Numbered from the stretch's first letter, positions 2,787-62,936 are shown. The stretch: DNA of 64,000 bases from Felis catus (GCF_018350175.1 NC_058368.1:30940001-31004000); one strand, 5' to 3'. The notes: a model not told the origin generated them from the letters alone. Program-made: numbers and translations.

Positions 2787-3307
2787 GTTTACATCCTCTC
2801 ACTTTGAATCTGCAGGTGAATTTGGGTCTAAAATTAGTCTCTTATAGGTAGTATAGAGAAAGATCTTATAACCCATTATAAGATGGGCTTTGGCTTTGGC
2901 TTTCACTGGAGCATTTAGTCCATTTATATTCAATGTAATTATTTATAGATATGTATTTACTGTCATTATTTGTTTCATGATTATTTCTGAAGATTTTCTT
3001 TGATACTTTTTTGTCTTTCATGGTTTGCTTATTTTCTTTAGTGATACATTTAGATTTTTTTCTCTTTATTCTCTGCATATTTATTAGTGGTTTTGGATAT
3101 ATGGTTACCATTGTGTTTGTATACAGCCACTTCTGCATATAGCAGTATCTTGTGTTGGTTGTTGTTTAAGTTTTAACTCACTCTTTGTTGATTTTGTTGG
3201 GTTCAGTTTTGCCTCCTGGATCTGGATATCTGTTTCCTCAGGTTAGGGAAGTTTTCAACTATTATTTCTTCAAATAAATGTTTTGCCCCCTTTTTTCTCT
3301 CTCTCTC

Positions 3308-18027: not shown

Positions 18028-18068
<41 letters not shown>
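18028..18068 (+). repeat. (TTG)n microsatellite
   Basis: Direct reading. Confidence 0.97.
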
Positions 18069-18101
18069 ATATTGCTGTTGCTTAAGAAATTACTGAGTAA
18101 A

Positions 18102-18324
18102 GGGGCACCTGGGTGGCTCAGTTAGTTAGGCATCCAAGTCTTGATTTGGGCTCAGGTCATGATCTAGTGGTTTCATGGATTCAAGCCCCACATCGGGCTC
18201 TGTGCTGAGAGCCTGGGGCCTGCTTCGGATTCTGTATCTTCTTCTATCTCTGCCCCTCCTCCCCTCGTGCTGTTCCTCTCTCTTTCTCTCCCAAAAATAA
18301 ACAGTAAAAAATTAAAAAAAAAAA
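18102..18324 (+). mobile_element. Can-SINE
   Basis: Full head to tail. Degenerate TSD aagaaattactgagtaaa / aagaagttactgggcaaa. Confidence 0.94.
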
Positions 18325-19883: not shown

Positions 19884-20010
19884 CAATATGTTCTGCCAAA
19901 ACTATGGCTATTTGCTTTATTATTTGCTTTAACTTTGTTGTTGTTGTTGTTCTTGTTGTTACATTGCTGTTGCTTAAGAAATCACTGAGTAAAAGGGCAC
20001 CTGGGTGGCT
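19884..20010 (+). repeat. Dispersed local copy of 17944-18118 (templated insertion)
   Basis: Shares 'caatatgttctgccaaaactatg', 'ttatttgctttaac', (TTG)n, 'attgctgttgcttaagaaat' and the SINE head 'gggcacctgggtggct'. Confidence 0.92.
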
Positions 20011-24069: not shown

Positions 24070-24175
24070 TCAAATTGACTTAGTGTGTATGTACACGATC
24101 TAAGAAAACTATCTCTGAAGTAGGGAATATGCATGTGAATAATTGCAAATTATGGCAAGAATGGTGAACAGTCAA

Positions 24176-24212
<37 letters not shown>

Positions 24213-24326
24213 ACGAAAGAGGAAGAGTCAAATTGACTTAGTGTGTATGTACAGGATCTAAGAAAACTATCTCTGAAGTAGTAGAATATGCATGTGAATA
24301 ATTGCAAATTATGGCAATAATGGTGA

Positions 24327-24380
<54 letters not shown>

Positions 24381-24396
24381 CACCAAAGAGGAAGAG
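24070..24396 (+). repeat. Two-copy tandem duplication (158 and 169 bp), each copy carrying a (TG)n
   Basis: Units 24070-24227 and 24228-24396 both start 'tcaaattgacttagtgtgtatgtaca' and end 'aaagaggaagag'. Confidence 0.96.
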
Positions 24397-25346
24397 TTTA
24401 TGTATAAAAGTTGCTGCCATATGTAGGGCAGGTGTAGTGGTATCCCAGTCTAACACTAAAAATGCTTCATAGAATAATACATTTCCTAGCATTTGAATAG
24501 ATTAACAGCAATAGAAATTGATTGTTCCATCCAGTATTTAACTTGAAATATTGACTAGTGTACCTGATGTATGATATTTCCATTGAGAGAGGTATAGAGT
24601 TCTTGTCTAGAAGATAACCAAAACCAGCTTCTAAAGAAACTACAAAGTTTCTCTCTCTCAACGTTCCTTTTTAAAAAGTTAATGTCCATTATTTAGAGAA
24701 AATGGTTCTCAGAGTTTGTCTTACAAAGAGCAGTTCAATAGCATCTGCACTCTATGTATTGGTGTTTAGACAAGGGTACTTTTTTTTAAAATTTCATACA
24801 TCAATTAAAATTTTGTAATATTCCATGCAGGATTGCACATATTTTTTAAACGTGTGTGTGTGTGTGTGTGCATGTGCATGCACATGCATGTGTGTGTAAG
24901 AGAAAATATTAAAAGAAGCACAACTAAAAAGTTACTCTCCAGTCTTTGACCCAGGATTGTACACATAACAGTTGTACTCTGCAAAACCTTCACCAGGGTG
25001 GAACAATAAAAGGAGAGTGGATCAGAGAAAAACAAAGAAACAAAAAGCCCTGAAGTATGTCCATGGGAACATACTCATTCCAAAAACATTTGAAATGTGT
25101 ATTACTACTGCGATTCTTTTTTATCATTCTTGTTGATAAATACTAAAAGCATTCCGTTTTAGATAGCTAATTTTTTAACATATTTATTACTGTATATATT
25201 ACTACTATATATATACACACATAATGTTTATATTATATATTATATTTTATGTTATATAAATATATATAAACATATATAACTAGGAGGTGGGGTTAAAATA
25301 AAGGTATATACTAAATGCAAAAGCATGATAGGACACAGACCTATTG

Positions 25347-28300
25347 GTGGCTCAAGATGGTGACGTAGGAAGATCTTGAACTCACTTCCTCCCGCACACA
25401 TACCAAATCTACAACTACATGTGGAACGGTTTCCTTTGAAAAAGACCTGGAAACTAACTCAACAGCTCCTCCGCAACATAGGATAAAAGGTCCACATCAG
25501 AACTGATAGGAGAGGCAGAGATATAGTCTTGCTAAAAACCTTACTCCCAGGGTGTCAACCATTCATTGGGAGGAATCTCACAAACAGGGAACTTCTCCCT
25601 GAGGAGCAAGGGGTTCATGCTCCACATTAGGTACTCCAATCCTTAGGACATGCACTGGAGAGACAAGCTTTGAAAACCAGTGGGTCTTATGTCTAGGAAA
25701 CCCAAAAGTCTGTAGGGAACTGAGATTTCACACTGAAAGGGCTCATACATAGACTAACTCTGAAACCCAATGCAAAAGCAGCAGTTTAAAACGTGCCCAG
25801 AGGATGAGCACTGGGTGTTGTATGGAAACCAATTTGACAATAAATTTCATATTTAAATAAATAAATGAATGAATGAATGAATGAATGAATAAAATATGCC
25901 CAGACTGTATGTGAAGGAGATTCACTTTATATCTTATAATCTTAGTGTCTGAAAGAGGGGCAAGTGTCTTTTGGGACTCTATCTGGGGATTGAGACACTG
26001 GTAGACACCATCTTTGTGTTCTCTGTCATGCTCACCGTCCTATTGGCATGCACAATTTTGCACTCTCTTTTTACCTTACTAACACCAGTGGGGCTGTCCT
26101 GCCCCTGTGCTCTCCTGTGGCTCTGCTAAAGCCAGCAGACATGGGCACAGTCCATGCATCCCTTAAGTGGCTGGTGCTGGTGACCAGGGCCAAAACAATT
26201 GGAGACACAGTTCTTGGCAGGCTACCACCCCCGGGAATGACACAGTAAAGAGACTGAAGCAAACCCCTAGTTTTTCAGTGAAAATGTCCTATTTACTTGT
26301 CCTGGAGCTTCAGCCTGAGGGACAGCCTTCAGGCTAACATTTACGGAATTTAGAGGTGATCTCAGGAATGTAGGCTGGGTTCACTATCTTTGCACTCTAC
26401 CTAGACCTTCCTACAGCTCACTGGTACTCCAAAAAAGGAGTTTATACACTTTTCCTGATTTTGGCAATATTCATCAGGAAATACCTCCAGATTACATGGT
26501 CTGGGGACAAGCAGGATTTATGATTGCAGTCCCACAGGACTGTATATAATTTGCACATTTTAAAAGCTGCTGGCTGAGGGTTTAATGGCTTTCAATGAGC
26601 CTGAAACTAAGTGCTGACTGAGATCCCTCCCTTTGAAACACTGACAGGTCTTGTTATACCCTAAACAACTGGGACATTTCAAGAATAAATCAGATCGTTT
26701 AGACCAATACAAGGGTTCAAGAGACAAAGAACACCTACGGCAAGGCTGAAGGATAAGATTCATCTTCTACACAAGGCCACTCCTTCATGACCAGGAGAGA
26801 AGCTGATTCACCTAATACATAGAAACAAACTCAGAGTCAAGTAAAAATCAGGAAATAGTGGAACATATTTCAAACTAAAGAACAAGATGAAATCCCAGTA
26901 ATAAACCTTCATGTAATGGAGATAGATAATGTACCTGATAAAGAGTTCAAAGTAATGGTCATAAAAATGCTCACCTAACTCAAGAGAAGGATAGATGGAC
27001 ACCCTGAGATCCTCAACAAAGAGATGGAAATAAGAGAAAATACCAAAAAGAAGTCACAAATCTGAAGAATATAATAACTAAACTGAAAATATACACTAGA
27101 GGGATTCAACAACAGCTAGATGAAACAGAAGAAAGGACCAATGATCTCAGACCCGTTAGACTCATCCAAACAGAGAAGCAAAAAGAAAAATTACATGTGT
27201 AAAAAAAAAAGTGAGGATAGCTTAAGGGACCTATAGGATAGTATCAAGTAGATAACATTTACATTATAGGGGGTCCCAGAAGAAGAGAAAAAGAAGGGGC
27301 CAGGAAACATACCTGAAGAAATAATGGCTGAAAACCCCTAACTTAGTGAAGGAAACAGACATCCAGGTGTAGGAAGACCACAGAGTTTGAATTAAAATGA
27401 ACCCAAAAAGATCCACACTGAGTCACATTTCAGTGAAATTTTGGAAGTTAAATAGAGCACCTTCAAAGCAGCAACAGAAAAGCAACTTGTTACATACAAG
27501 GGAAAACCCCATAAGGTTATAAGCAGATTTTTCAGTAGAAACTTTGCAGGCCAGAAAGGAGTGGCATGACATATTTAAGGTGCTGAAAAGAAACTTCCAA
27601 CCAAGAATACTTTCCCTGTGAATGTTATCATTCAGAATTGAAGGGGAGATCGAGTTTTCCAGATAAGCAAAAGCTAAAGGAAATCGTCATTTGTAATCAT
27701 ATCAAGCATCTTTTTTTGACTACCAGAGTATAAAACTAGAAATCATTTAAAAGAAGACTAAAAAATTACAAATACATGGAGATTAAACAACATAATACTG
27801 AACAATCAATAGGTCGATGAAGAAATCAAAGGGGGAATTAAAAATACCTCAAGACAAACGAAAATGTAAACAGAACATACCAAAATCTATGAGACACAGC
27901 AAAAGAAGTTCTAAGAGGGAAGTTCATGACAATATAGGCCTATCTTAAGAAACAAGAAATATTTCAAAATTACCGCTTTAACTTTATACCCAAATGAACT
28001 AGAAAAAGAAGCACAAAGTGAAAAGTTAGAAGGAAATAATAAAAATTAGAGCCAAGATAAATGAAATAGAGACTAAAAATGCAATAGAGAAGGTCAATGA
28101 AATTAAGAGTTGGTTCTTTGAAAAGATAAGCAAATCTGACAATACCTTAGCTGGACTCACTAAAACTAAAAGAGAGCAGAACCAAATAAATCAGAAGTTA
28201 CAAGGGATACCACAGAAAGACAAAGGGTCATTAGAGACTAGTAATAAGCATTTATATGCCAACAAATTGGACAATGTAACCTAGAAGAAATGGATTTCTA

Positions 28301-29220
28301 GAAACATACAATCTTCCAAGATTGAGTCACGAAGAAATAGAAAATTTGAGTAGATTATTAGTAAGGAGTAATTATACCTGATTACTAGGAATTAGTAATC
28401 AAAAACCTCTCAACAAATAAGTTCATGACCAGATGCTTCACTGGTGAATTCTACCAAATGTTATAAGAGGATTTAATACTTATTTTTCTCAAATTCTTCC
28501 AAAAAATTGAAGAAGTGGGGGTGCTCCAAACTCATCTTATGAATCCAGCAATACCCCGATACCAAAACCAGGCAAGGACACCACACACAAAAAATAAAAT
28601 CATAGGCCACTATCCCTGATGAAGACACAAAAAAAAAACCTTGACAAAATATTAGCAAATCGGATTCAAAAAACACATTAAAAGGATCATATGCCATGTT
28701 CAAATGGGATTTATTCACAGGGATGTATGGATGGTTTTACATCTACAAATCCACCAACAGGATCTATCACATTAACAAAATGAAGGATAAAAATTATACA
28801 GTCATCTCAATAGATGCAAATAAAGCGTTTGACAAAATTCAATATCTGTTTATGGGAAAAACTCTCAACAAAGTTGGCATAGAAGGAATGTACCACCACA
28901 GAATAAGGTCATATATGAGAAACTCATAGGTTATAACATACTTAACAGTGAAAAACTGAAAACTTTTTTCTCTAATATCAGGAACACAACAAGGGTGCCC
29001 ATTGTTGCCACTTTTGTTCAACATAGAATGATGAGTCCTAGACAGAGCAGTTAGGCAAGAAAAAGAAATAAAAGGCATCAAAATTTAAAAGGAAGAAGTA
29101 AATCTGTCACTATGTGGATGACATGATTTTATATACAGAAAACCTTAAAAACTCCACCAAAATCTTATAGAACTAACCAATTAATTCAGTAAAGTCACAT
29201 AGTATAAAATCAATATATAA
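25347..29220 (+). mobile_element. Older L1 with 5'UTR, ORF1 and partial ORF2; internally deleted and lacking its own 3' end
   Basis: 5' 'caagatggtgacgtaggaagatcttgaactcac'. ORF1-like text at 26850-27690. ORF 28696..28929 is RT-like ([13 protein letters not shown]). Confidence 0.88.
25802..25890 (+). mobile_element. Extremely 5'-truncated cat L1 (about 55 bp plus tail)
   Basis: Matches the last 55 nt of the L1 at 61225-61278. TSD aaaacgtgcccaga (25788-25801) / aaaatatgcccaga (25891-25904). Confidence 0.92.
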
Positions 29221-44332: not shown

Positions 44333-46222
44333 GTTTTTTATTTCAAGTTTTTATTTTAATTCCAGTACTGTTAACATACAGTGATATATTAGTTTCAGGT
44401 GTACAGTGTAGTGATTCAACCTTTCCATACATCACCCTGTGTTCACCTGGACAAGTGTACTTCTTAATCCTCATCACTTATTTCCCCTGTCCTCCCATCT
44501 ACCTTCTGTCTGATAACTATCAGTTTGTTCTATATAGTAAAGAGTCTCTTCTTTTCCCTTTGCTCATTTGTTTTGTTTCTTAAATTACACATGAGTTAAA
44601 TTATATGGTATTTGTCTTTGACTGACTTATTTCACATAGCATTATACTCTCTAGCTCCATTCATATTGTTGCAAAAGTCAAGATTCCATTTTTTATGGTT
44701 GAGTAATATTCCATTGTACGTAAGTACCACCTCATCTTTGTCCATTCATCTATAGATGGACATTTGGGCTGCTTCCATATTTGGCTATTGTAAATAATGC
44801 TGCAATAAGAATAGGGGTGTGTGTATCCCATTGGATTAGTTTTTTTGTAATATTTATTTTTTTGGTAAATACATACTAGTGCAATTGCTAGATCAAAAGG
44901 TAGTTCTATTTTTAACTTTTTGACAGACCTCTCTACTATTTTCCACAGCAGCTGCACCCGTTTTCATTCCCACCAAGTGTGTACAAATGTTCTCTTGTCT
45001 CCATATCTTTGCCAACACTTCTTGTTTCTTGTGTTTTTGAAGAAGTGTGATGTGATAATCTCATTGTTGTTTTGATTTGCGTCTTCCTGATGATGAATGA
45101 TGTTGATCATCTTTCCATGTATCTTTTGGCCATCTGTATGTCTTCTTTGGAGAAATGTCTGTTTAAGTCTTTTACCCACTTATAATTAGATTTTTTGGGG
45201 GGTATATTGACTTGTTTCAGTTCTTTAAATATTTTGGATACTAACTCTTTATTGGATATGCCATTTGTACTGTCTTCTCCTATTCAGGTGGTTGTCTTTG
45301 AGTTTTGTTGACTATTTCCTTTTCTGTGTAGAGTTTTTTTATTTAGATGTATTTCCGGTAGTTTATTTTTGCTTATATTTCCCTTGCTTCAGGAGACCTA
45401 TCTAGAAAAATGTTGCCATGGCTGATGTCACAAAAATTAGTGCCTGTGTCCTTTTCTAGGATTCTTATGGTTTCAGGTTTCACATTTAGTTCTTTAATCG
45501 ATTTTTAATTTATTTTTGTGTATGGTGAGAGAAAGTGGTCCAGTTTCATTCTTTTGCAAGTAGCTATCCAGTTTTCCCAACACCACTCACTGAAGAGACT
45601 TTTTCCTATTGCATATTCTTGCCTCCCTTTTTGAAGATTAATTGACCGTATAAGTGTGGGTTTATATCTGGGCTCTCTATTCTCTTCTATTGATCTATAT
45701 GTCTATTTTAGTGTCAGTACCATAATATTTCAATTACTAGAGCTTTGTATTATTTCTTGAAATCTGGGATTGTGTTACTTTCAGTTTTGTTCTTTTTTTC
45801 CCCCCAATATTGCTTTGGCTCTTTGGGGTCTTTTGTGGTTCCATACAAATTTTAGGATTGTTTGTTCTAGTTCTGTGAAAAATGCTGCTAGTATGTTGAT
45901 ACAGATTGCATTAAATCTGTATATTGCTTTGGGTAGTATAGACATTTTAGCAATATTTGTTCTTCTAACCTGTGAGCATGGAATGTCTTTCCATTTCTTT
46001 ATGTCATCTTGAATTTCTTTCATCAATGTTTTATAGTTTTCAGAGTACAGGTCTTTCACCTCTTTCGTTAAGTTTATTCCTAAATATTTTATTGTTTTTA
46101 GTGAAATCGTAAATGGGATTTGTTTTCTTAATTTCACTTTCTGATGCTTCATTATTAGTGTGTAGGAAGGCAACAGATTTTTGTGCATTGATTTTGTATT
46201 CTGTGACTGTACTGACTTCATG
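44333..46222 (-). mobile_element. 5'-truncated carnivore L1 (ORF2 3' part and 3'UTR)
   Basis: ORFs 45781..46221 ([23 protein letters not shown]), 44661..44957 and 44964..45179. T-rich tail at about 44335. Confidence 0.95.
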
Positions 46223-46299
46223 TGTCCTTTCTAATGATAATTAATTAATAGAATACTACCTTAGGTTTTGAACATCACATTTTAGATGAATTAAAAGCA

Positions 46300-46540: not shown

Positions 46541-47379
46541 ATATGTTTATCGATTTCTATTGATGTCTAATATTTTACTGCAGTCAATTATGTGGCTTTC
46601 CTTTAAGCCTGTCCTGAAAATTCTACATGTGAGATTTTATTTATTTAGCCATTAAATTCTTTTTTTAAGGGTTGAACATTCTTCCTTGTTGTAGTTAATG
46701 ATTACATACCTATTTCTAGGGAGAGAAATTTGATTCCTTTTGTTTTGATATTAAAAACCATTTAGAAAACGTGTATAGGAAGATGAAGTATAAGGATATT
46801 AATAATAGTTAATACCTTTACACTACCTTTTTCAGCACAGTTCAGTTATATTTGTGTAATTTTCCAAGGAATCCAAGTCCTTTTTGTATTTAAAAAATAT
46901 TATTTGATTAACCCTTAGCTGGAATGTAAAAACACAACACTAATCAATAAGAGAATGGAGTTCAATTTTAGTAGCAAATAAATTCAGATAGCCATGAGAT
47001 TGGGGAGATAGCACTTAAAGTTATGTGCATTTGGAAAGGCCAATGTCTAGTGCACATGAATGTGGATGGGTGTTGGTGATTTAAGGAAAGTTAGACAAGT
47101 AGGTATACAGACTTCTCATATAGTCACAGAAAGAAGTGGAAAATAGTTCAAAAGTAATCAGCAATTCATCAAGAGATTATTTCCCAGTCATTTTCCTATT
47201 ATATATAAAACATTTTGACAAAACTTATATCTGTATTCACTTTTGAAAGATATAGTTATTACGTAAGATGAGATGGAAATAAAATAGACAATTTTTACTT
47301 TAGTAACCACTCATACACCCACACCTCTACCTTGATACCAATGTGTAAAGACTTCCTTTAGGTACTCCAAATTCTGGTC

Positions 47380-48990
47380 CTTTTCTCATATTTTCCAATA
47401 AACTTAAGGAAGAATTATTTATACCTGCCTTTTATTTCTTTACTTCCTTTTCACCCCTATACCCACCTCAATTGGACTTCCATTCCCATCATTTAAATAA
47501 ATAGATTTCCCTTGAATCACTGATAGATTTATCTGTGCCTGTAAGTTCTAGGGTCACTTTTCACTACTCATCTTACTTGACTTCTGTTGACTATTCCTTT
47601 CTTGATTAAACATTCTTTAATTTCAATCGCCTTATTTACTGAGTTCTGCAGTTTCAGATCTTTCTCCCTGGACATTAAATATTGGAGTTCCTTACATCTT
47701 GGACTTGGGCCCACTCAAATTTTTATGGAAAACCACTTACTCAGGCAATCTTTTCCAAATCCACATTTTCAGTTATTGATACAAATTTATCTCTCCAACA
47801 CCAAAATATATGTTCACCTGCCTACCTCTAGTATCTTTCTTTCTTTGAAGATCTTTTAGACTTGCTGCGTCTGAAATGTAATTTGTGATCATTTCCCTTC
47901 ATCTTATGTTCTAACATTCTCTAAATTGGTTGAGTGCATGACTACCATACACACAAATCAGAAATGTAGGTGCCATTTTTGACATTTTCTCCTTCCCCAT
48001 CACCAAGTTCTATCAATTTTCCTTCTTAAACAGATTTTGAATACATTATTTTCTTTTCATCTCCACCATCACCTATCATCCAGACTATCATCACCTTTTT
48101 TCTGGACTATAGCTATAGCTGCTGTATTTGCTCACATGCATCCGTTTTGGCTTCTACACATTCTGTTGCACCCAGCCTCTGTTAAAAAAAAAATGCAAAA
48201 CAAAACAAAAAAACACCATGTCACTTTCCCCTGCCATATTTAAAACATTCCAATCACTTTCCATTGCTCTTAGGATAAATGAAAGACCTTACAATATTAA
48301 AAAACAAACAAAACCTCTGTCTTATAAATCTTTAAACCCTTATTAAAACATTGTAGACACAAGACAGAAGTAAACTAGTAAGTTATTTTTATTTGATGTT
48401 CATTGAGCACTTACTATGGACATGAACTATAATAAACCTTCAAAAGTATCTCACTTAATCTCCATAAATCTAATAGAATGAATACATTCATGTATCAACT
48501 TTATAGAAAAGAATATTTAGGTTTCAAAATGTCATGAATATGGAACCCTGCTTATCTACAGTCTCATAACACATTCGTCTTTTCTTGATTGTCTGCTTTA
48601 GCCATACTGGTCTCCATTCAGTTCTGCATTCTAGGCATGTTCCTTCCCATACAGGGCTTTTGATTGTGTTGTCCTCTCCTTCCAAAACCTTCTACCTTTG
48701 TCCACCGACCCTTCAGCTAGTTCATGCTCCTGAGGTCTTAGGTCAATTGTTGCTTCCTCAGAAAAACTCTCCCTGACTTCTCTGACAATGAATTGCCTCC
48801 AAATGTAAGCTCTTTTAGCCCCATACACTTCTCCTTGCGAGTGTTTAGTACTTTATCACAGTTATAAGTCACACTTTTGTATGAGGTCCTTTGATTTATC
48901 TATCTCTGTCGGTCCATAATAAGTTTCATGAGGGCAAGGGAAGTTTTTCCTTTTGTTAAACCCTTTAATTTTAGCACCTAGCATGGTTGC
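47380..48990 (+). mobile_element. L2 (about 1.3 kb) interrupted by a templated insertion at 48291-48540
   Basis: 'ttccattgctcttaggataaat', 'agccatactggtctcc' and 3' end 'taagtttcatgagggcaagg...tagcacctagcatgg'. Confidence 0.75.
48291..48540 (+). repeat. Old local copy of 49333-49480 plus 58849-58940 (unique flank and MIR, pre-L1 state)
   Basis: Shared 'aagaca.aagtaaacta.taa', 'ttatttttatttga', 'tatggacatg', 'ataaac.ttcaaaa.tatc', 'tttatagaaaa' and 'aatgt.atgaat'. Confidence 0.85.
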
Positions 48991-49480
48991 TGAATGATTT
49001 GGGTTATGTTACCTTGAGAAGTAATACATTGACTATCATGTACATGTGGATTTTATCTTTTTCTTTTTTTTTTTTTAAGTATTGGTACAGAAAACAATGC
49101 TTTGAGAAATTATGATAGAAAAAAAAAGCTGAGAGGGTCCTGTACCTGGGCAGGTTCCCTCATAGCACTAAGGCAGTTACTGAGTTATAGAGTAAATGTT
49201 AGGGGTTATGCCATGTGTTTGCAGGGAAATAAGTTATGATTGAATTAAAGGCAATATATATTTTTAGGAAACATAGCTTACTTTATTGCAGCCCTCTAGT
49301 GAGCGGCGTGAAGTATAATAAAAATGTAAGAGCAACAGTAAATATACAAACCTTTTGACACATCTTTTAAAAAACTTATAAAACATATTAGAAATAAGAC
49401 AAAAGTAAACTAATAAAATTTATTTTTATTTGACATTCACTTAACACTTAATATGGACATGCATTATATGATAAACTTTC

Positions 49481-52400
49481 TTTTATTTTCTTTTTTTAAA
49501 TATATAATTTATTGTCAAATTGGCTTACATACAATACCAAGTGCTCATCCCAACAAGTGCCCTCTTCAATGCCGATCACCCATTTCCCCCTCTTCCCCAC
49601 CCCCATCAACCCTCAGTTTGTTCTCAGATTTTAAGAGTCTCTTATAGTTTGCCTCCATCCCTCTCTGTTTGTAACTATTTTTCCCCTTCCCTTCCCCCAT
49701 GGTCTTCTGTTAAGTTTCTCAACATCCACATAAGAGTGAAAACATATGGTATCTGTCTTTCTCTGACTGACTTATTTCACATAGCATAATACCCTCCAGT
49801 TTGATCCACACTGCTACAAATGGCCAGATTTCATTTGTTTTCTTTGTCAAGTAGTATTCCATTGCATGTGTAAACCACATCTTCTTTTATCCATTCAACA
49901 GGTGATGGATATTTAGGCTCTTTCCATAATTTGACTAAAGTTGAAAGCACTGCTATAAACATTGGGGTACATGTGCCCCTATGCATCAGTACTCCTGTAT
50001 CCCTTGGGTAAATTCTGAGTAGTGCTACTGCTAGGTCATAGGGTAGTTCTATTTTTAATTTTTTGAAGAACCTCCACACTGTTTTCCAGAGTGGCTGCAC
50101 CAGTTTGCATTCCCACCAACAGTGCAAGAGGGTTCCCGTTTCTCCACATCCTCTCCAGCATGTATAGTGTCCTGATTTGTTCATTTTAGCTACTCTAATT
50201 GGCAGAAGGTGGTATCTCAGTGTGGTTTTGATTTGTATTTCCCTGGTGAGGAGTGATGTTGAGCATCTTTTCATGTGCCTGCTGGCCATCTAGATGTCTT
50301 CTTTAGAGAAGTGTCTATTCATGTCTTCTGCCCATTTCTTCATTGGATTATTTATTTTCAGGTGCAGAGTTTGGGGAGTTCTTTACATATTTTGGATACT
50401 AGCCCTTTGTCTGATAAGTCATTTGCAAATATCTTCCCATTCCATCGGTTGTCTTTTAGTTTTGTTGATTGTTTCCTTTGCAGTGCAGAAGCTTTTTATC
50501 TGGATGAGGTCCCAATAGTTCCTTTTTGCTTTTAATTCCCTTGCCTTTGGAGATGTGTCGAGTAAGAATTGCTGCAGCTGAAGTCAGAGAGGTTTTTGCC
50601 TACTTTCTCCTCTAGGATTTTGATGGTTTCCTGTCTCACATTCAGGTCCTGTATCCATTTTGAGTTTATTTTTGTGTATGGTGTAAGAAAGTGGTCTCGT
50701 TTCATTCTTCTGCATGTTGTTGTCCAGTTCTCTCAGCACCATTTGTTAAAGAGACATTCTTTTTTTTTCCATTGGATACTCTTTCCTGCTTTGTCAAAAA
50801 TTATTTGGCCATGCTTTTGTGGGTCCAAACCTGGGTTCTCTATTCTATTCCATTGGTCTATGTGTCTGTTTTTGTGCCAAAGCATACTATCTTGATGACT
50901 ACAGCTTTGTAGTAGAGGCTAAAATCTTGGATTGTGATGCCTCCCGCTTTGGTCTTCTTCTTCAAAATTACTTTGGCTATTCAGGGTCTTTTATGGTTCC
51001 ATACAAATTTTAGGACTGCTTGTTCTACCTTCGAGAAGAATGCTGGTGTCATTTTGATTGGGGTTGCATTGAATGTGTAGATAGCTTTGGGTAGTATTGA
51101 CATTTTAACAATATTTATTCGTCCAATCCATGAGCACGGAATGTTTTTCCATTTCTTTATATCTTCAATTTCCTTCATAGCTTTCTATAGTTTTCAGCAT
51201 ACAGATCTTTTACATCTTTGGTTAGGTTTATTCCTAGGTATTATATGCTTCTTGGTGCAGTTGTGAATGGGATCAGTTTCTTTATTTGTCTTTCTGTTGC
51301 TTCATTCATGCAGTTGCTTCATTCATGCAGTTCAAGAATGCAACTGATTTCTGTAATTGATTTTGTATCCTGAGACTTTGCTAAATTCATATATATCAGT
51401 TCTAGCAGACATTTGGTGGAGTCTATCAGGTTTTCCATGTATAGTATCATGTCATCTGCAAAAAGTGAAAGCTTGACTTCATCTTTGCCAATTTTGATGC
51501 CTTTGATTTCCTTTTGTTGTCTGATTGCTGAAGCTAGAACTTCCAACACTCTGTTAAACAACAGCGGTGAGAGTGGACATCCCTGTCGTGTTCCTGATCT
51601 CAGGGAAAAAGCTCTCAGTTTTTTTCCATTGAGGATGATATTAGCTGTGGGCTTTTCATAAATGGTTTTATGATGTTTAAGTATATTCCTTCTATCCCGA
51701 CTTTCTCGAGGGTTTTTTTTAAGAAAGGATGCTGAATTTTGTCAAATGCTTTTTCTGCAATTGACAGGATCATATGGTTCTTATCTTTTCTTTTATTAAT
51801 GTGAGGTATCACACTGATTGATTTGCAAATGTTGAACCAGCCCTGCAGCACAGGAATGAATCCCACTTGATCATGGTGAATAATTCTTTTTATATGCTGT
51901 TGAATTCGATTTGCTAGTATCTTATTGAGAATTTTGCATCCATATTCATCAGGGATATTGGCCTGTAGTTCTCTTTTTTTGCTGGGCCTCTGTCTGGTTT
52001 GGGAATCAAAGTAATGCTGGCTTCATAGAATGAGTCTGGAAGTTTTCTTTCCCTTTCTATTTTTTGGAATAGCTTGAGAAGGATAGGTATTATCTCTGCT
52101 TTAAATGTCTGGTAGAATTCCCCTGGGAAGCCATCTGGTCCTGGACTCTTATTTTTTGGGAGATTTTTGATAACTGATTCAATTTGTTCACTGGTTGTGG
52201 GTCTGTTCAAGTTTTCTTTTTCTTCCTGTTTGAGTTTTGGAAGTGCATAGGTGCTTAGGAATTTGTCCATTTCTTCCAGGTTGTTCAGTTTGTTGGCATG
52301 TAATTTTTCATAGCATTCCCTGATAATTGCTTGTATCTCTGAGGGATGGTTGTAATAATTCCATTTTTATTCATGATTTTATCTATTTGGGTCATCTCCC

Positions 52401-55400
52401 TTTTCTTTTTGAGAAGCCTGGCTAGAGGTTTATCAATTTTGTTTATTTTTTCAAAAAACCCCCTCTTGGTTTCATTGATCTGCTATACAGTCTTTTTTAG
52501 ATTCTGTATTGTTTATTTCTGCTCTGATCTTTATTATTTCTCTTCTTCTGCTGGGTTTGGGGTATCTTTGCTGTTCTGCTTCTATTTCCTTTAGGTGTGC
52601 TGTTAGATTTTGTATTTGGGATTTTTCTTGTTTCTTGAGATAGGCCTGGATTGCAATGTATTTTCCTCTCAGGACTGCCTTCGCTGCATCCCAAAGTCTT
52701 TGGGTTGTTGTATTTTCATTTTAATTTGTTTCCATATATTTTTAAATTTCTTCTCTAATTGCCTGGTTGACCCATTGATTCTTTAGTAGGGTGTTCTTTA
52801 ACCTCCACGCTTTTGGAGGTTTTCCAGACTTTTTCCTGTGGTTGATTTCAACCTTCATAGCATTGTGGTCTGAAAGTATGCATGGTATGATCTCAATTCT
52901 TTTATACTTATAAAGGGCTGTTTTGTGACCCAGAATGTTATCTATCTTGGAGAATCGTCCATGTGCACACGAGAAGAAAGTATATCCTGTTGCTTTGGGA
53001 TGCAGAGTTCTAAATATATATGTCAAGTCCATCTGATCCAATGTATCATTTAGGGCCCTTGTTTCTTTATTGATCCTGTGTCTGGATGATCTATCCATTG
53101 TTGTAAGTGGAGTATTAAAGTCCCCTTCAATTACCACATTCTTATCAATAAGGTTGCTTATGTTTGTGTTTAATTGTTTTATATATTTGGGGGCTCCTGT
53201 ATTCAGCACATAGACATTTATAATTGTTAGCTCTTCCTGATGGATAGACCCTGTGATTATTATATAATGCCCTTCTTCATCTCTTGTTACAGCCTTTAAT
53301 TTAAAGTCTAGTTTGTCTGATATAAGCTTGGCTACTCCAGCTTTCTTTTGACTTCCAGTAGCATGATAGATATTTCTCCATCCCCTCACTTTCAATCTGA
53401 AGGTGTCCTCAGGTGTAAAATGAGTCTCTCGTAGACAGCAAATAGATGGGTCTTGTTTTTTTTTTTTTTTTTTTTATCCATTCTGATACTATGTCTTTTG
53501 GTTGAAGCATTTAGTCCATTTACATTCAGTGTTTTTACACAAAGATATGGGTTTAGAGTCATTGCGATGTCTGTAGTTTTCATGCTTGTAGTGATGTCTC
53601 TGGTACTTTGTGGTCCTTGTAACATTTCATTCACAGAGTCCCCCTTAGGATCTCTTGTAGGGCTGGTTTACTGGTGATGAATTCCTTCAGTTTTTGTTTG
53701 TTTGGGAAGACCTTTATCTCTCCTTCTATTCTGAATGACAGACTTGGTGGATAAAGGATTCTTGGCTGCATATTTTTTTCTTTTCATCACATTGAAGATG
53801 TCCTGCCACCTTTCTGGCCTGCCATGTTTCAGTAGATAGGTCTGTCACTAGTCTTATCGGTCTCCCTTTATATGTTAGAGTGTGTTTATCCCTAGCTGCT
53901 TTCAGAATTTTCTCGTTATCCTTGTATTTTGCCAGTTTCACTATGATATGTTGTGCAGAAGATTGATTCAAGTTATGTATGAAGGGAGTTCTCTGTACCT
54001 CTTGGATTTCAATGCCTTTTTCCTTGCCCAGACCAGGGAAGTTCTCAGCTGTACTTAATTTGTTCAAGTACACCTTCAACCTCTTTCTCTCTCTCTTCCT
54101 CTTCTGGAATTCCTATTATATGGATATTGTTCCGTTTCATTGCATTGCTTAGTTCTCTAATTCTCCCCTCAAACTCCTGGATTTTTTTTATCTCTCTTTT
54201 TCTCAGCTTCCTCTTTTTCCATAATTTTATCTTCTAATTCACCTATCCTCTCCTCTCCCTCTTCAATCCGAGCTGTGGTCTCCTCCATTTTATATTGCAC
54301 CTCATTTATAGCATTTTTAGCTCCTTGTGACTATTTCTTAGTCCCTTGACCTCTGTAGCAATAGATTCTCTGCTGTCCTCTATACTTTTTTCAAGCCCAG
54401 CGATTAATTTTATGACTATTATTCTAAATTCATGTTCCTTTATGTTGTTTAAATCATTTTTGATCAATTCATTAGCTGTCTCTACTTCCTGGAGTTTCTC
54501 TTGAGGAAAATTCTTCCATTTTGTTATTTTTATAGTCCCTGGGGTGGTGTAGGACTGCAGGCAGGGCACTTCCCCTGTGCTGTTTGGAGTAACTTGTGTT
54601 GGTGGGCGGGGCTGCAGTCAGACCTGATGTCTATCCCCACCCCACCGCTGGGGCCACAGTCAGACTGGTGTGTACCTTATCTTCCCCTCTCCCAGGGGCA
54701 GGTCTCACTGTGGACTGGTGTGGCCCCTGTCTGGGCTACTTGTACAATGGCAGGCTTGTGGTGCTGCTTTGAAGGGATCTGGCGTATTAGCTGGGGTGGA
54801 TCTGCAAAGTGCACAGGGGTAGGAGGGGCAGGCATAGCTCGCTTTTTTGTTGGTGGTCCCCTGCAGGAGGGGACATGTAGCACTGGGACAGAGGCAGGCA
54901 GACCATCGGAGTGATGGATCCACAGAAGCACAGCATTGGGTATTTGCGTGGTGCAAGCAAGTTCAGTGACAGGAACTGGTTCCCTTTGGGATTTTAGCTG
55001 GGGAATGGGAGAGGGAGATGGCGCTGGCCAGCAGCTTTGTTCCCCTGCCAGGCTGAGCTCTGTTTTCCAGGGCTCAACAACTCTCCCTCCTGGTGTCCTC
55101 TTGCCCTTCCGCTCTCTGAGCAGAGCGGTTGACTTATAACATTCCAGATGTTAAGTCCCACTGGCTGTCAGAACTCACTCCTTCCGACCCCTCCGTTTTT
55201 GCAAGCCAGGCTCGGGGGCTCTGCCTTGTAGGGTGGGCTGCCCCTTCACTGCCCCGCCTCCCTCCTGCCAATCCATGTAGCACGCACTGCCTCTCCACCC
55301 TTCCTACCCTCCTCCGTGGGTCTCTTGTCTACAGTTTGCTCCTGAGAGTCCATTCTGCTAGTCTTCTGGTGGTTTTCTGGGTTATTTAGGCAGATATGGG

Positions 55401-55464
55401 TGGAATCTAAGTGATCATCAGGACGCAGTGAGCCCAGCGTCCTCCTATGCCACCATCTTGCCCC
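49481..55464 (-). mobile_element. Full-length but disabled cat-lineage L1 ('A')
   Basis: 5'UTR from 'ggggcaagatggtggc'. ORF1 pieces 54306..54569 and 53726..54079; endonuclease 52742..53395; RT 51319..51561 ([11 protein letters not shown]); Cys-rich C-terminus 49831..50289; 3'UTR and tail. Multiple frameshifts. Confidence 0.97.
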
Positions 55465-55473
55465 ATAAAAAAA

Positions 55474-58400
55474 TCTCCATATATTTTTTAAAATTTCTTC
55501 TTTAATTGCATGGTTGACCCATTTGTTCTGTAGTAGGATGTTCTTTAACCTCCCTGCATTTGGAGATTTTTCCAAACTTTCTCTTGTGGTTGATTTGAAG
55601 TTTCATAGTGTTCTGATCCATGAAAGTGTGTATGATATGATCTCAATTCTTTTATAGTTATTGAGGGCTGTTTTGTAACCCAGCATGTGATCTATCTTGG
55701 AGAATGTTCCATGCACACTTGAGAATACTGTATATTCTGCTGCTTTAGTATGAAAAGTTCTAAATATATCTGTCAAGTCTGTCTGGTCCAGTGTATCATT
55801 CAGGGCCATTGTTTCTTTATTGATTTTCTGTCTAGATGATCTGTCCATTGCTATAAATGGAGTATTAAAGTCCCCTGCAATTACCATGTTCTTACCAATA
55901 ATATTGGTTATGTTTGTGATTATCTCATATATTTGGGTTCTCCCAAATTTGGTGCACAGACATTTATAATTGTTAGTTCTTCTTGATGGATAGACCCTGT
56001 AGTTATTATATAATGCCCTTCTTCATCTCTTATTACAACCTTTAGTTTAAAATCTAATTTGTCTGTTATAAGTATGGCTACTCTAGCTTTCTTTTGGCTT
56101 CCAGTAGCATGATAGATGGTTCTCCATCCCTTCACTTTCAATCTGAAGGTGTTCTTAGGTCTAAAATGGGTCTGTTTTAGATAGCAAATAGATAGGGTTT
56201 TTTTTAAATCTATTCTGATACCCTATGTCTTTTGATTAGAGCGTTTAGTCCATTTACATTCAGTGTCATTGTTGAAAGATATAGGTTTGAATCATTGTGT
56301 TATATGTAGGTTTCATGCTTGTAGTGATGTCTCTGGTCCTTTGTGGTCCTTGAAACATTTCACTCACAGAGTCTCCTTAGGATCTTGTGTAGGGCTGGTT
56401 TAGTGGTGATGAATTCCTTCAGCTTTTGTTTGTTTGAGAAAACTTTTATCTCTCCTTCCACTCTGAATGACAGGCTTGCTGGATAAAGGATTCTTGGCTG
56501 CATATTTTTCCTGTTCATTACATTGAAAATTTCTTGCCACTCCTTTCTGGCCTGTTAACTTTCAGTAGATAGATCTAATACTACCCTATGTGTCTACCCT
56601 TGCATGTTTGGGCCCGTTTATTCCTCGTGCTTTCAGAATTCTCTCTTTATCTTTGCATTTTGCCAGTTTCACTATGATATGTTGTGCAGAAGATTGATTC
56701 AAGTTATGTCTGAAGGGTGTGGTCTGTGCCTCCTGGATTTCAATGTCTGTCTCTTTCCCCAAATTGGGGAAGTTCTCAGCTATGATTTGTTCAAGTACAT
56801 CTTTGTCCCCTTTCTTCTTCTTCTTCTGGAACTCCTATGATACAGGTATTGTTCTGTTTCATTGAATCACTTACTACTCTAATTCTCCCCTCATGATCCA
56901 GATTTTTTTTATCTTTCTTTTTATCAGTCTCATCTTTTTGCATAATTTTATCTTCTATTTCACCTATTCTCCCCTCTGCTTCTTCAGTCCTCACTGTTGC
57001 CACCTTCGTTTCATTTTGCACCTCATTTGTATCATTTTTTAATTCATCATGACAATTTTTTAGTTCCTTGACCTTTGAAGCAATAGATTCTCTGCTGTTT
57101 TCTATGCTTTTTTCAAGCCCAACGATTAGGATTATTATTTTAAATTCTTGTTCAGTTATATTGTTTATATCTGTTTTGAGCAATTCTTTAGTTGTCATTT
57201 CTTCCTGGAATTTCTTTCGATGAAAATTCTTCTGTTTCATCATTTTGGCTAGTTTTCTGTCCCTAATGTGTTTTAAAAGCTTGTTATGTGCCCTGCACCT
57301 GCAAGCACTACTATATTAAAGAGGGATCATACATTGTTCAGGGACTAGCCCTTCAGGAGGTGTTTTTTTTGGAGTGTTACTTGTTCTCTATTGTTGTGAC
57401 TTTGGTTACTTTATCTCCTTATTCATAGTGATGTTTTGGACCCTCCACCAGGTGTGCTTTGATTTGTTTTTTGAAGTAGCCTGGAAAGGAAAACAAACAA
57501 CAAACAGAAAACAAAAATGCAAACATACAAACAAAGAAAAACAACAACAACAACAACAACAACAAAAATCCAGAAACACCAGCTGCCAGTAAACAACAGG
57601 GTGGAGATGGTACTGATGGAAGAGCACATACAAAGAGAGAAATAACAGGGGCGGGGAAATAAAAAAAAATAAACATTGACAGGGCAGAGAAACTGTACAG
57701 CTTAATCCAAAGAGAGAGAAAGGAAAATAAAGAAGGAGGCAGGGGAAAAGAAAAGAAGATGAAGTCCAGACAGGGAAACTATACAGCTTAATCCAGAGAG
57801 ATAGAAAGAAAAATAAGGAAGGAGGTGTAGAGCATGTATCAAGAAAATTGATTAAATATGTCTGTTTAAACAAACCAACAACCAGAGTAACCAGGCTAGA
57901 GGAGGGAAGAGAGAAGGAGAAAAGGAAGGAGGAATGTATCTATATTATAAGAATTGTCAGAGATTTAAACCCGGCACTGCAGCAGTGCAGGTCTGGAGGA
58001 GGGGCTGTCTGGTTCCTCAGCATCTAGCCTGCTCCAGTACCTGGCACAGAGGGCATGGTTTGGAATAGTCGAGTCCCGCCTCCACTGGGTCCCTATGGGC
58101 CAATCCCTGAGGCCCCCACTCGGTGGAGGTGGTGGGGAGAAAAATGGCGACACCCCGTCTCTCCTCCAGGGACGTGGTATCCCAAAGCACTCTGTTTGAG
58201 CCGTCCTCACTGTGCCGCGAGCATAAATGAGGCGGTTTGTCTCGCTTTGCGACTCGCATGCCCTGGTACTTGGCTGGGATTCATACTGCCATTCTACACA
58301 CCCCTGGACTGGAGAAGCACCACTCAGTGCCACCCAATATGTGGTCTCTGGTTGGCGGATACAGGCAGGCTTTGTCCTGTATCACAGCATTCCAGGATGG

Positions 58401-58834
58401 GGATCACTTTCTCCTAGTGCAGACTGCACCCCTGACCTAGCCACAGGCCCGGGGCTGGCTCCCCTCCTCCCCAGGTGCCTGATGCTGGCAGCTGACCCTA
58501 GTCCGGAGAAAGCCCCTTGGTTAGAGATTGGATCTTTCTCCATCCCAGTCTGAGGTCTTTCTGTCGTCCAGATACAGTTTTGTGCTTCCCCAGCCTCTCT
58601 TTCTCTTCCCTTTATCTCTCCGCAGAAGGGGATCCCTCCCCTCTGTTGATCTCTCCCAGTTCACCATCACTTACCTATGGCCTATCAGGTTGTCCCAGTG
58701 GGTCTCTGGAAGTGATTCTGTCTCTTTGCCTCCCAGACTATTGGGGGTCAAAGTCCTTTGGCTTCAACTCTGCTTTGTTTGAGAGATGAGGGAACTTCAG
58801 ATCCCCCTACTTATCCACCATGTTGGCCCCTGCC
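55474..58834 (-). mobile_element. 5' half of a second L1 ('C') with a different 1.6-kb 5'UTR, ORF1 and endonuclease domain
   Basis: 5' 'ggggccaacatggtgg'. ORF1 56791..57243; endonuclease 55920..56141 and 55603..55887. Confidence 0.95.
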
Positions 58835-58848
58835 TGTAATAAACTTTC

Positions 58849-58965
58849 AAAAATATCACTTAATCCTCATAAGTCTGGTAGAAGACATTAATTTATCAGT
58901 TTTATAGAAAAAAAGTTGAGTCTTCACAATGTTATGAATTATATCCTAGCCCACACAGCAAGGCT
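58849..58965 (-). mobile_element. Right half of a MIR split by the composite L1 (left half about 49430-49480)
   Basis: 'cacttaatcctcata...ttttatagaaaaaaagttgag...cacacagcaag' continues the MIR from 'acattcacttaacacttaatatg'. Confidence 0.7.
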
Positions 58966-59217
58966 ATTGTGTTGAAGATACCACAGATCTTATTCCATAA
59001 TCAATGAATTAAAATTTAAAACAAGAGCTTCTCATATTTCAGTAATGTGTGTACCCTCATTAAAATATCAAAATATTTCTGAATATTCCTACTGTATAAT
59101 TAAATGAGCATTGTGATATTACTTAAACATAGAAATATAGTGGTGAAATTCTTGTACTTATAGATTTGTGGAAACGAAAATAAATCAACATTAGGTTTTA
59201 TAAATTTTATAAATCAA

Positions 59218-61283
59218 GATGTCCACTCTCACCACCATTGTTTAATATAGTGTTGGAAGTTCTAGTATCAGCAATCAGACATGAAAAAGAAATCAAACGC
59301 ATCAAAACTGGCAGAGATGAAGTCAAGCTTTCACTTTTTGCAGATGACATGATAGTATACATGGAAAATCTGATAGACTCCACCAGAAGTCTGCTAGAAC
59401 TGATACATGAATTCAGCAAAGTTGCAGGGTACAAAGTTAATGTACAGAAATCAGTTGCATTCTTATACACTAATAATGAAGCAACAGAAAGACAAATACA
59501 GAAACGGATCCCATTCACAATTGCACCAAGAAGCATAAAATACCTAGGAATAAACCTAACCAAGATGTAAAAGATCTGTATGCTGAAAACTATAGAAAGC
59601 TTATGAAGGAAATTGAAGAAGATACAAAGAAATGGAAAAACATTCTGTGCTCATGGATTGGAAGAATAAATATTGTTAAAATGTCAATACTACCCAAAGC
59701 TATCTACACATTCAATGCAATCCCAATCAAAATGACACCAGCCTTCTCAATGCTAGAAAAAAAAATCCTAAAACTTGTGTGGAACCCACAAAAGACCCCG
59801 AATAGCCAAAGTAATACTGAAGAAGAAGACCAAAGTAGGAGGCATCACAACCCCAGACTTTAGCCTCTACTACAAAGCTGAAATAATCAAGACAATATGG
59901 TATTGACACAAAAACAGACACATAGACCAATGGAATAGAATAGAGAACCCAAAATTGGACCCAAAAAATGTATGTCCAACTACTCTTTGACTAAGCAGGA
60001 AAAAGTATTCAATGGATAAAAGACAGTCTCTTTAGCAAATGGTGCTGGGAGAACTGGACAACAACATGCAGAAGAATGAAACTAGACCACTTTCTTACAC
60101 CATACACAAAAATAAACTCAAAATGGATGCAGGACCTGAATGTGAGACAAGAAACCATCAAAACCCTAGAGGAGAAAGTAGGCAAAAACCTCTCTGACCT
60201 CAGCTGCAGCAATTTCTTACCTGATACATCTCCAAAGGCAAGGGAATTAAAAGCAAAAAGGAACTATTGGGACCTCATCCAGATAAAAAGCTTCTGCACT
60301 GCGAAGGAAACAATCAACAAAACTAAAAGACAACCAGTGGAATGGGAAAAGATATTTGCAAATGACATATCAGACAAAGGGCTAGAATTCAAAATCTATA
60401 AAGAAGTCACCAAACTCCACACCCAAAAAACAAATAATCCAGTGAAGAAATGGACAGAAGACATGAATGGACATTTTTCCAAAGAAGAAATCCAGATTAC
60501 CAACAGGCACATGAAAAGATGCTCAACATCACTCCTCATCAGGGAAATACAAATCAAAACCACACTGAGATACCACCTCCTGCCAATCAGAGTGGCTAAA
60601 ATGAACAAATCAGGACACTATACATGCTGGAGAGGATGTGGAGAAACGGGAACCCTCTTGCACTGTTGGTGGGAATGCAAACTGGTGCAGCCACTCTGGA
60701 AAACAGTGTGGAGGTTCTTCAAAAAATTAAAAATAGAACTACCCTATGACCTAGCAGTAGCACTACTCAGAATTTACCCAAGAGATACAGGAGTGCTGAT
60801 GCATAGGGGCACATGTACCCCAATGTTTATAGCAGTGCTTTCAACTTTAGTCAAATTATGGAACGAGCCTAAATGTCCATCACCTGTTGAATGGATAAAA
60901 GAAGATGTGGTTTACACATGCAATGGAATACTACTTGACAAAGAAAACAAATGAAATCTGGCCATTTGTAGGATGGAATTAGAGGGTATTATGCTATGTG
61001 AAATAAGTCAGTCAGAGAAAGACAGATACCATATGTTTTTACTCTTTTGTGGATCTTGAGAAACTTAACAGAAGACCATGGGGGAGAGAATGGGGGAAAA
61101 AAGTTACAGAGAGGGAAGGAGGCAAACCATAAGAGACTCTCAAAAACTGAGAATAAACTGAGGGTTCATGGGGGATGGGAGTGAGGGGAAAGTGGGTGAT
61201 GGGCATTGAGGACAGCACCTGTTGGGATGAGCACTGGGTGTTGTATGGAAACCAATTTGACAATAAATTACATATTAAAAAAA
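59218..61283 (+). mobile_element. 5'-truncated cat-lineage L1 ('B'), inverted relative to A
   Basis: ORFs 59238..59570 (FADDM), 59603..59863 and 60076..60954. 3'UTR ends 'aatttgacaataaattacatattaaaaaaa'. Confidence 0.97.
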
Positions 61284-61515: not shown

Positions 61516-61976
61516 TGTTTATTATCTGCATAGGTAGATTCTGCTACATTGATAATGGGCTTCAAATATCAGTGCCTTAACACATACAATTCTATCACAT
61601 GACTTACATTGTTGATTCTCTAGGGCAGATTTCACCATGCTAATTTGGGATCTCCATGCTTAGCACCAAAGCAGATAAACAACTAGAGTAATATACAGAA
61701 TAATTTTCCCTGCCTCATCTTTGAGGCGACACTGTAAACCATAATGATTACCATGTATTAAATGCCTGTGATGTGCATGATAATATATCAGGCATTTTAT
61801 TGTTTTTAATTTTTTATGTTTTTAATGTTGATTTATTTTTGAGAGACAGAGACACAGCTCAAGACTAAGATAAGAACTAGTCACATGGCCCCATCTAAAT
61901 ATAAGAGGGCTGGCTGCTGTATGTCCCAAGAATGACATTATCATGTATATTGGTGAGTACAAATAATGACTATCAT
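61516..61976 (-). mobile_element. MLT1-like LTR interrupted by a templated insertion
   Basis: 'aaatatcagtgccttaaca', 'aactagtcacatggccccatctaa' and 'attggtgagtacaaataatgactatca'. Confidence 0.7.
61728..61860 (+). repeat. Dispersed local copy of 62793-62920 (templated insertion)
   Basis: Near-identical 'gacactgt(t)aaaccataatgattacca.gtattaaatgcctgtgatgtgcatgataatatatcaggcattttatt...gagagacagagacacagctc'. Confidence 0.95.
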
Positions 61977-62865
61977 GATTCCAAAACTGAAATGCTGTAC
62001 TCTTAAATGGTTTCAAACTGTATTACCATGCACATAAAATACATTTAATTTCTGTTATTGGTAAATTACTAAACATGAATACAAGATTAAATACAGATGT
62101 TTGTTATTGTTTTAATATTGGAACTATGGGCAGTAAGCTCTGCCTTTCAGTATCTTGAAACTGAGAGACTGCCATTTCTATAGATGCTCTCTTGGCCCCA
62201 AAATAATCTTAAATACAAAATGCAAGTATGAGCCATGAGCTTCTAGACAATATTTGGTTAAAAGGTGGTCACTGAGATGATTCAGAATAAGAATTTTTTA
62301 TTATCTTCAATAACTCAAAGTAACATTGGATAGAGAAGTCATGGCCACATGTGAGAATACGTTGCCAACCCCACAGTTTGAGAAACAGTGTACTGTCTAC
62401 AGCTATTCTCACTGTAGAGCAAAGTGACAAGATGAGTAGAAAATGAATAAAAAAAATGTTCAAGAGCAAGATGATTGTGGAGTGGAGTGGTAGTGAAAGG
62501 ATTCATGGGCAGGAAGGATTTGAGCTCAGCCTTGAAAAAATAAGAGGACTTAAACAGAAAGGAGAGAATTGGAGTCTCAGCAGGCTGAACATCATAAAAG
62601 AAGAAGGGGAGAGAGCAAGGTTTGTTCATGGGTTAAGAAGGTGAACTTATTTGGAATGAAGAGTTTGTTCTGAAGAGTATTTCCTGTTTTATGTATAATG
62701 AAAAGCTAGAGAAAAATTCTAAGTGAAAAACTGTGCCTCCTTGAAAATGGTGCTTTGGACAAATAATGTAATTTTCAGTGATTAGTGGTGGTGACACTGT
62801 TAAACCATAATGATTACCACGTATTAAATGCCTGTGATGTGCATGATAATATATCAGGCATTTTA

Positions 62866-62936
62866 TTTTTTAAAAATTTTTTTAATGTTGATTTATTTAT
62901 GAGAGACAGAGACACAGCTCTATTGGGGGAGGGACA

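Follow-up and report, generated by a model that had tools for sequence, protein, structure and literature searches.

In the 64,000-nt stretch of Felis catus DNA analysed here (the window), two L1 5′UTRs and two copies of ORF1 are joined to one 3′ end within one insertion scar, and this structure is confirmed. The composite unit lies on the minus strand between 58834 and 49481 (9,354 bp) and consists, in this order, of the 5′UTR, ORF1 and the start of ORF2 of one element (C), a linker of 9 nt, and a complete second element (A). The initial annotation had described a double-headed L1 with unrelated 5′UTRs and a single outer TSD; its order, coordinates and length all hold on re-measurement, and the other two claims are borne out by the measurements given below. 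The segment from ORF1 to the endonuclease is present in both elements and forms a direct repeat, 82.1% identical over 1,810 columns.

The protein domains agree with this arrangement. Of 11 ORF pieces compared with Pfam, 5 matched: the ORF1 domain (PF02994) was found twice, together with the endonuclease of A and pieces of the RT; the endonuclease of C was identified by tblastn with ORF2 proteins. The unit contains ORF1 together with an ORF2 that has both endonuclease and RT, which defines a LINE-1, and it has the TSD of 7–20 bp, the endonuclease site and the poly(A) tail of a LINE-1 inserted by TPRT. Every ORF of the unit is broken, and the composite is thus now dead.

The outer scar is bounded by a 5′ copy of the TSD at 58835–58848, at an endonuclease-type site (TT/GAAA), and a 3′ copy at 49467–49480, both read on the minus strand. 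The two copies, TATGATAAACTTTC and TGTAATAAACTTTC, share 10 exact bases and agree at 12 of 14 positions in all; only 13 of 200,000 random draws of flanks reached exact identity over at least 10 bases. Their mismatches, 2 events in 14 bp, are too few to date the insertion. The poly(A) tail survives as a remnant of 17 nt (49481–49497).

The two heads and the shared 3′ end

All parts of the unit lie on the minus strand. The 5′UTR of C (57244–58834), whose first G-run is the 5′ end of the unit, is GC-rich at about 57970–58834 and consists of pyrimidine-rich, low-complexity sequence at about 57490–57960. It is similar in composition to the dog L1 5′UTRs with T-rich repeats described in the available part of PMC5381506. 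ORF1 of C (56362–57243) is broken by 3 frameshifts and 1 stop and is followed by a fragment of ORF2 (55474–56295), also broken, which covers codons 1 to about 275, i.e., the endonuclease and about 35 codons more. The possibility that C is a half-L1 (HAL1) is ruled out by these approximately 275 codons of ORF2. A search with the N-terminal part of C ORF1 gave 0 of 704 candidates.

The 5′UTR of A (54528–55464) is likewise GC-rich and has no homology to that of C: their best local score, 22, stands at the level of shuffled sequence (100 shuffles, mean 21.9, maximum 31). ORF1 of A (53634–54527) carries 5 frameshifts and an ATA start codon, and the ORF2 that follows (49722–53562), comprising endonuclease, RT and C-terminus, carries 15 frameshifts and 7 stops relative to dog ORF2p. 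The single 3′UTR (49498–49721) includes AATAAA at 49513–49508. Element A is full length yet dead. The nearest named ORF1 proteins of the unit are those of cat and lion: with the young cat ORF1p P0142, A shares 82.5% and C 68.4% identity, and with dog P0197 both share about 50–52%.

Two local changes are visible in the ORF2 of A, a 20-nt homopolymer expansion at 53456–53475 and a perfect 17-bp tandem duplication at 51296–51332. The idea that an ancestral motif is kept at the 3′ end of the unit failed for that motif on an older L1 of the window, and Rfam gave 0 matches across 47000–55600.

The junction between C and A

C breaks off 16 nt past a TTTT/AAAAAA site. These 16 nt (55474–55489), which start at the site, form the putative 5′ copy of an inner TSD whose 3′ copy is absent. 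Between the 16-mer and the first G of A lies the T-rich linker TTTTTTTAT (55465–55473), which belongs neither to the ORF2 of C nor, as far as can be discerned, to the G-run start of A. That A begins just past such a site had been proposed from the first reading, and the spacing of 16 nt upholds it. A strict TT/AAAA site is located 7–20 nt upstream of 84 of the 3,811 positions of A ORF2 (2.2%), and a relaxed endonuclease site of 358 (9.4%). Because chance would supply such a site at TSD distance in 2–10% of cases, the junction favours the entry of A into C DNA by TPRT. In this first step, which is considered probable, the young full-length A would have inserted into ORF2 of the older full-length C, in the same orientation and at the TT/AAAA target.

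In a nested L1-in-L1, an inner TSD would flank A at either end and the 3′ half of the host would follow; here the 5′ copy alone is found. The loss of the second copy and of the rest of C, also pointed out earlier, stands for the window: across the 64 kb the inner 16-mer recurs nowhere exactly, its nearest relatives (2 mismatches) being the homologous ORF2 positions of A and of an old L1, and the remainder of C is absent.

Three other explanations of the join, two of which the first reading had overlooked, are less probable. In an insertion-coupled deletion, A would have been primed in or beside the poly(A) tail of C, with its 5′ end joined 3.3 kb upstream in C ORF2, and the 3′ half of C would have been lost in the one event. 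Such an event predicts an all-A 3′ half and the TSD of C, both as observed, and target-site and L1-mediated deletions are known (in the available part of 10.1101/2024.08.27.596794). It would, however, turn the TT/AAAA site at TSD distance into a coincidence (2–10%), and the nick would have to land in the tail; moreover, the DNA lost in human through insertion-mediated deletions was 25 times less than that lost through L1RADs, according to the accessible portion of PMC3543922. It is regarded as quite unlikely. A template switch, in which the RT finished the A RNA, jumped into the C RNA within ORF2 and ran to the 5′ end of C, is thought slightly less probable still. It would fit one TSD, an all-A 3′ half and the few untemplated bases at the join, and strand switching is proposed as a source of mosaic L1 families in the part of PMC3600994 considered, but it leaves the endonuclease site 16 nt upstream unexplained. 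The third explanation, an assembly artefact by which two L1 loci were mis-joined, is the least probable of all. Mis-joins of repeats usually fall within homology; this join is non-homologous, contains 9 extra bases and has an endonuclease site at TSD distance. Over the 9.35 kb, the outer TSD is also in agreement with the empty-site paralogue (below).

Searches of contig collections were made with sequence from the unit. The junction motif, which a multi-copy composite family would carry at several loci with different TSDs, gave 0 matches in metagenome contigs, a scan without power, as the 3′-end control motif also gave 0 there. The inter-ORF motif gave 0 in viral and 0 in genome contigs, and the 3′-end motif 0 in all three collections; the ORF1 protein gave 13 pattern matches in viral contigs, none confirmed. 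All that these results indicate is that the collections lack cat-family L1 DNA. Among sequencing runs, 19 of the 24 listed (9 studies) contain 0.56–0.64 of 423 sampled words of 55000–59217, a result that is not counted as evidence for the junction or for presence of the unit.

The target site

A sequence at 48328–48539 (plus strand) aligns to the left flank of the unit at 79% over 120 positions and to the right flank at 76% over 113. It is an old duplicate, some 1 kb distant, of the site before insertion, and provides an empty site inside the window. Since both flanks align to it contiguously and in one orientation, they were formerly adjacent, and there has been no net inversion. An inversion between the unit and its neighbour B (below) is ruled out on the same ground. 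The sequence interrupted by the insertion may be a MIR, to judge by resemblance; the flank gave no match at a useful E-value to the other repeats of the 64-kb window.

Exchange with a neighbouring L1

A second L1, B (59218–61283, plus strand), is inverted relative to the unit and 5′-truncated at about codon 661 of ORF2. Upstream of two tracts described here, the unit and B differ at 78 of 834 sites. Within 49815–50259 of the unit, which corresponds to 60526–60970 of B, only 8 differences are found in 445 positions, with 188 identical in a row, although the copies are inverted and about 10 kb apart. The best window of 400 sites has 7 mismatches; neither this value nor the identical run of 188, the longest between the two, was reached in any of 5,000 permutations. 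A frameshift at codon 1221 is common to the unit (49884) and B (60901). A probable second, older tract covers 50423–50719, with 11 differences in 297. The boundaries of the tracts were picked by eye. This similarity marks an exchange of sequence between the unit and B by gene conversion after the insertion, an event that the initial annotation had missed. Two consequences follow: neighbouring L1s do exchange sequence at this locus, and about 740 bp of the 3′ half are masked in the search for a switch between A and C. The frameshift common to inverted neighbours is also a clear caution: typing of L1 subfamilies by their 3′ ends can be led astray by local gene conversion.

The reading of B as the displaced 3′ half of C is unparsimonious, as B starts at codon 661 and not at 276. 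For B itself, a search for a clean TSD found none. Its 5′ flank (59192–59222) weakly matches 49360–49387 in inverted orientation (81% over 31, E=0.03), in AT-rich sequence where the match may be due to chance.

Relative age of C and A

Three older L1 remnants of the window (1–3300, 27374–29217 and 44370–46233) are 66–77% identical to the ORF2 of the unit, and two of them served as outgroups. In an ORF1 tree (25 sequences), A groups with the cat and lion proteins, and C is the sister of this clade (support 89/91, not starred), and the end branches are 0.27 for C and 0.10 for A. At residues conserved in the outgroups and in a young relative, the endonuclease is changed at 27 of 114 positions in C and at 12 of 113 in A (p=0.013), and the private changes in ORF1 number 15 of 131 against 5 of 131. 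Combined, C carries 42 changes and A 17, about 2.5 times as many (p=0.0015). Other measures show no such difference: with non-felid outgroups only, the two heads differ in ORF1 by 17 vs 12 of 176 (p=0.46) and 13 vs 11 of 162; nucleotide polarisation on an L1 that is 32% diverged gives 39 vs 41 of 627 sites; and hand counts of frameshifts and stops give 9 within 1.70 kb against 8 within 1.74 kb. C is read here as an older branch or as a long side branch. In both cases it carries a protein-level signature that a 3′ half derived from C should share. For a template switch, the greater change and earlier branching of C make co-activity with A improbable, while equal counts of CpG and of frameshifts would suit copies of equal age.

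Search for a switch from A to C in the 3′ half

A scan of the 3′ half for a change from A-type to C-type sequence had been suggested with the first reading. Run at the protein level, it revealed no C-type stretch from 52730 to about 50260, which leaves room for a distal crossover. Codons 272–455 have 10 changes in 98, as in A and unlike C (p=0.011). Codons 456–660 have 13 in 148, against 35 in 130 for C by the same measure; the endonuclease of A is also high on this measure (23/130, p=0.03), so part of the gap reflects domain conservation. In codons 661–900 the private changes are 10 of 134, compared with 25 of 106 for C (p=0.0007). They rise in codons 832–941 in both the unit and B (9/72 each), and such a symmetric rise is unlike a switch in the unit alone.

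The unconverted codons 1042–1096 have 4 changes in 30 in the unit; with one closer reference the count is 1 in 25 for the unit and 7 in 25 for B, where the analysis drew on the 8 of 150 proteins nearest the unit, a choice that still leans toward low counts. The greater change of B in these codons may mean that B is itself a mosaic. In the 3′UTR the unit and B differ at 27 of 220 sites (12.3%), a value intermediate to those expected of an A-derived (about 9.4%) and a C-derived (about 16%) sequence, and the private changes, a weak measure, are 10 vs 10 of 181. Past codon 272 there are 19 frameshifts and stops in 3.0 kb (13 + 6), slightly above both heads and uninformative. The 3′ half is therefore A-like to about 50,260, and its last 780 bp are either masked by conversion or ambiguous.

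Origin of the composite

The route favoured here, though held at somewhat under an even chance, is a 5′ transduction by read-through. The nesting of A in C would have taken place at a different (donor) locus; an RNA started at the promoter of C would have read through to the poly(A) signal of A, and this 9.35-kb RNA would have been reverse-transcribed whole into the present site. The resulting unit would be a 5′ transduction with the front half of another L1 as its cargo.

Several features are counted for this route. In a 5′ transduction one TSD encloses a full-length L1 together with sequence from upstream of it, as is seen here. The single TSD, the single poly(A) and the 5′ end at the first G-run of C are as expected from one long RNA, and the A-like codons down to about 50,260 agree with the A-type 3′ half that the route predicts. 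The 5′UTR of C is no more depleted of CpG than that of A (19 in 865 bp vs 17 in 926 bp), which fits, weakly, a lasting activity of the C promoter. Such events also occur in germlines: in the part of 10.1101/2024.04.18.590093 considered, 49 of 4,429 polymorphic L1 insertions were 5′ transductions, 20 of them from one source. On the other hand, the route would require an aged promoter to fire, proteins to be made despite a leader of 3.4 kb, and 9.35 kb to be copied without truncation. Most L1 insertions truncate. Neither a donor nor a sister copy came to light, in collections where the scan had no power. Two further points are counted against it: the typing of the 3′ half rests on the greater age of C, of which some measures show none, and the divergence of the 3′UTR from B lies between the A-type and C-type expectations.

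The main rival, a serious possibility that is also held at less than even, is that C was the first to insert here, so that the outer TSD is its own, that A nested in it at this site, and that the two 3′ halves then recombined. Single-strand annealing or unequal recombination, with a crossover near the 3′ end, would have eliminated one 3′ half along with the inner 3′ TSD. The junction signature is equally expected from such a collapse. The conversion with B shows L1 recombination at the locus, and this ectopic exchange among adjacent L1s makes a collapse more probable beforehand. Its prior is roughly several-fold higher than that of the transduction, since deletions mediated by LINE-1 are common, while 5′ transductions are the 49 of 4,429 insertions given above and the one here would be very long. 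Such deletions are documented in the available parts of two sources: 84 LINE-1 deletions, with a median of 4.5 kb for LINE-1 events and a median similarity of 93.5% for homology-driven ones (PMC9675761), and 73 L1RADs in human (PMC3543922). Against it stands the stretch from 52730 to about 50260, where no C-type sequence occurs; the crossover would have to fall in the last 780 or so of the 3,250 shared bp (24%), of which 445 bp are masked by conversion. The equal private changes of the unit and B in the 3′UTR speak against it too, on that weak measure. The absence of C-type sequence lowers the collapse about five-fold, and since this drop and the higher prior nearly cancel, the two routes come out near-equal. 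The weights given to all routes are a matter of judgement and not of computation. Of the two models of the initial annotation, which were these two routes, the shared first step, the nesting of A in C by TPRT, was strengthened, and the choice between them was only shifted in odds.

Other duplications in the window

Several smaller repeats were recorded in the window. A direct duplication of 137 bp (61725–61860 and 62790–62920, 90.5%) takes in flanking sequence and a SINE-like element's tail end. A tandem duplication of about 160 bp is located at 24070–24397 (87.6%), and a direct repeat of 76 bp at 18043–18118 and 19935–20010 (94.7%, 1.9 kb apart). At 25802–25865 lies an L1 3′ end of only about 60 bp, whose tail has turned into a 4-base repeat.

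Significance and comparison with known systems

In all likelihood the unit arose as an uncommon by-product of processes already known, its ingredients being familiar and their combination unusual. If the favoured transduction is true, it is an unusually long L1 insertion; if the collapse is true, an ordinary recombination scar of odd appearance. The suggestion that it represents a route to L1 promoter stacking gains no support from one dead copy. A bolder reading, considered unlikely, is that the unit is one copy from a "hot" nested donor, a composite L1 family with two promoters and two ORF1s. If true, recombination between the 1.8-kb ORF1–endonuclease repeats of C and A would put the old promoter of C on the young ORF2 of A. 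The product would be a mosaic with an old 5′ and a young 3′ part, as when L1 lineages revive extinct promoters, and the unit would be a captured intermediate of the DNA-level route reported as discounted in the accessible text of PMC3600994. A nested pair that travelled as a single RNA would offer a concrete first step towards explaining the exchange of promoters among L1 lineages.

In the literature covered, no L1 with two 5′UTRs and two ORF1s in one TSD was found, which is weak evidence of novelty as subscription papers were mostly outside its scope. One close parallel is L1 5′ transduction, which likewise places a full-length L1 and upstream sequence in one TSD with one poly(A), and which depends on the source locus (10.1101/2024.04.18.590093, in part). 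The cargo here differs in being 3.4 kb of another L1, from its own promoter and unspliced; among the 5′ transductions described in the available part of that source, none has an L1 as cargo. L1RADs and LINE-1 TEMRs likewise convert two L1s of the same orientation into one chimera of kilobase scale (PMC3543922 and PMC9675761, in the parts available). In contrast to L1RADs, the pair here would be nested and its product keeps two heads, and A and C are 82–84% alike, below the median given for LINE-1 TEMR in the portion of PMC9675761 considered. The homologous crossover that marks an L1RAD was looked for, and no switch was found in 52730–50260, the distal part being masked or ambiguous.

The linker recalls L1s with 5′ poly(T) heads, in which T-runs also separate the L1 from its 5′ TSD; it is a loose parallel, as the heads described in the available part of PMC2837659 measure 14–39 nt and precede truncated L1s, and here 7 T precede a full-length L1. 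L1TD1 has two tandem ORF1-derived halves, like the two ORF1s of the unit, but is an intact selected gene (PMC4161310, in part), whereas both ORF1s here are broken and decaying neutrally. A domesticated double ORF1 of the L1TD1 type is ruled out by the frameshifts and stops in both. Mosaic L1 families have the same polarity as the unit, with an older promoter and ORF1 ahead of a younger ORF2; as far as the accessible parts of PMC3600994 and PMC5872511 describe them, they arise by homologous joins that replace the 5′ end and are families, whereas the unit is one dead copy in which the join is non-homologous and both heads are kept.
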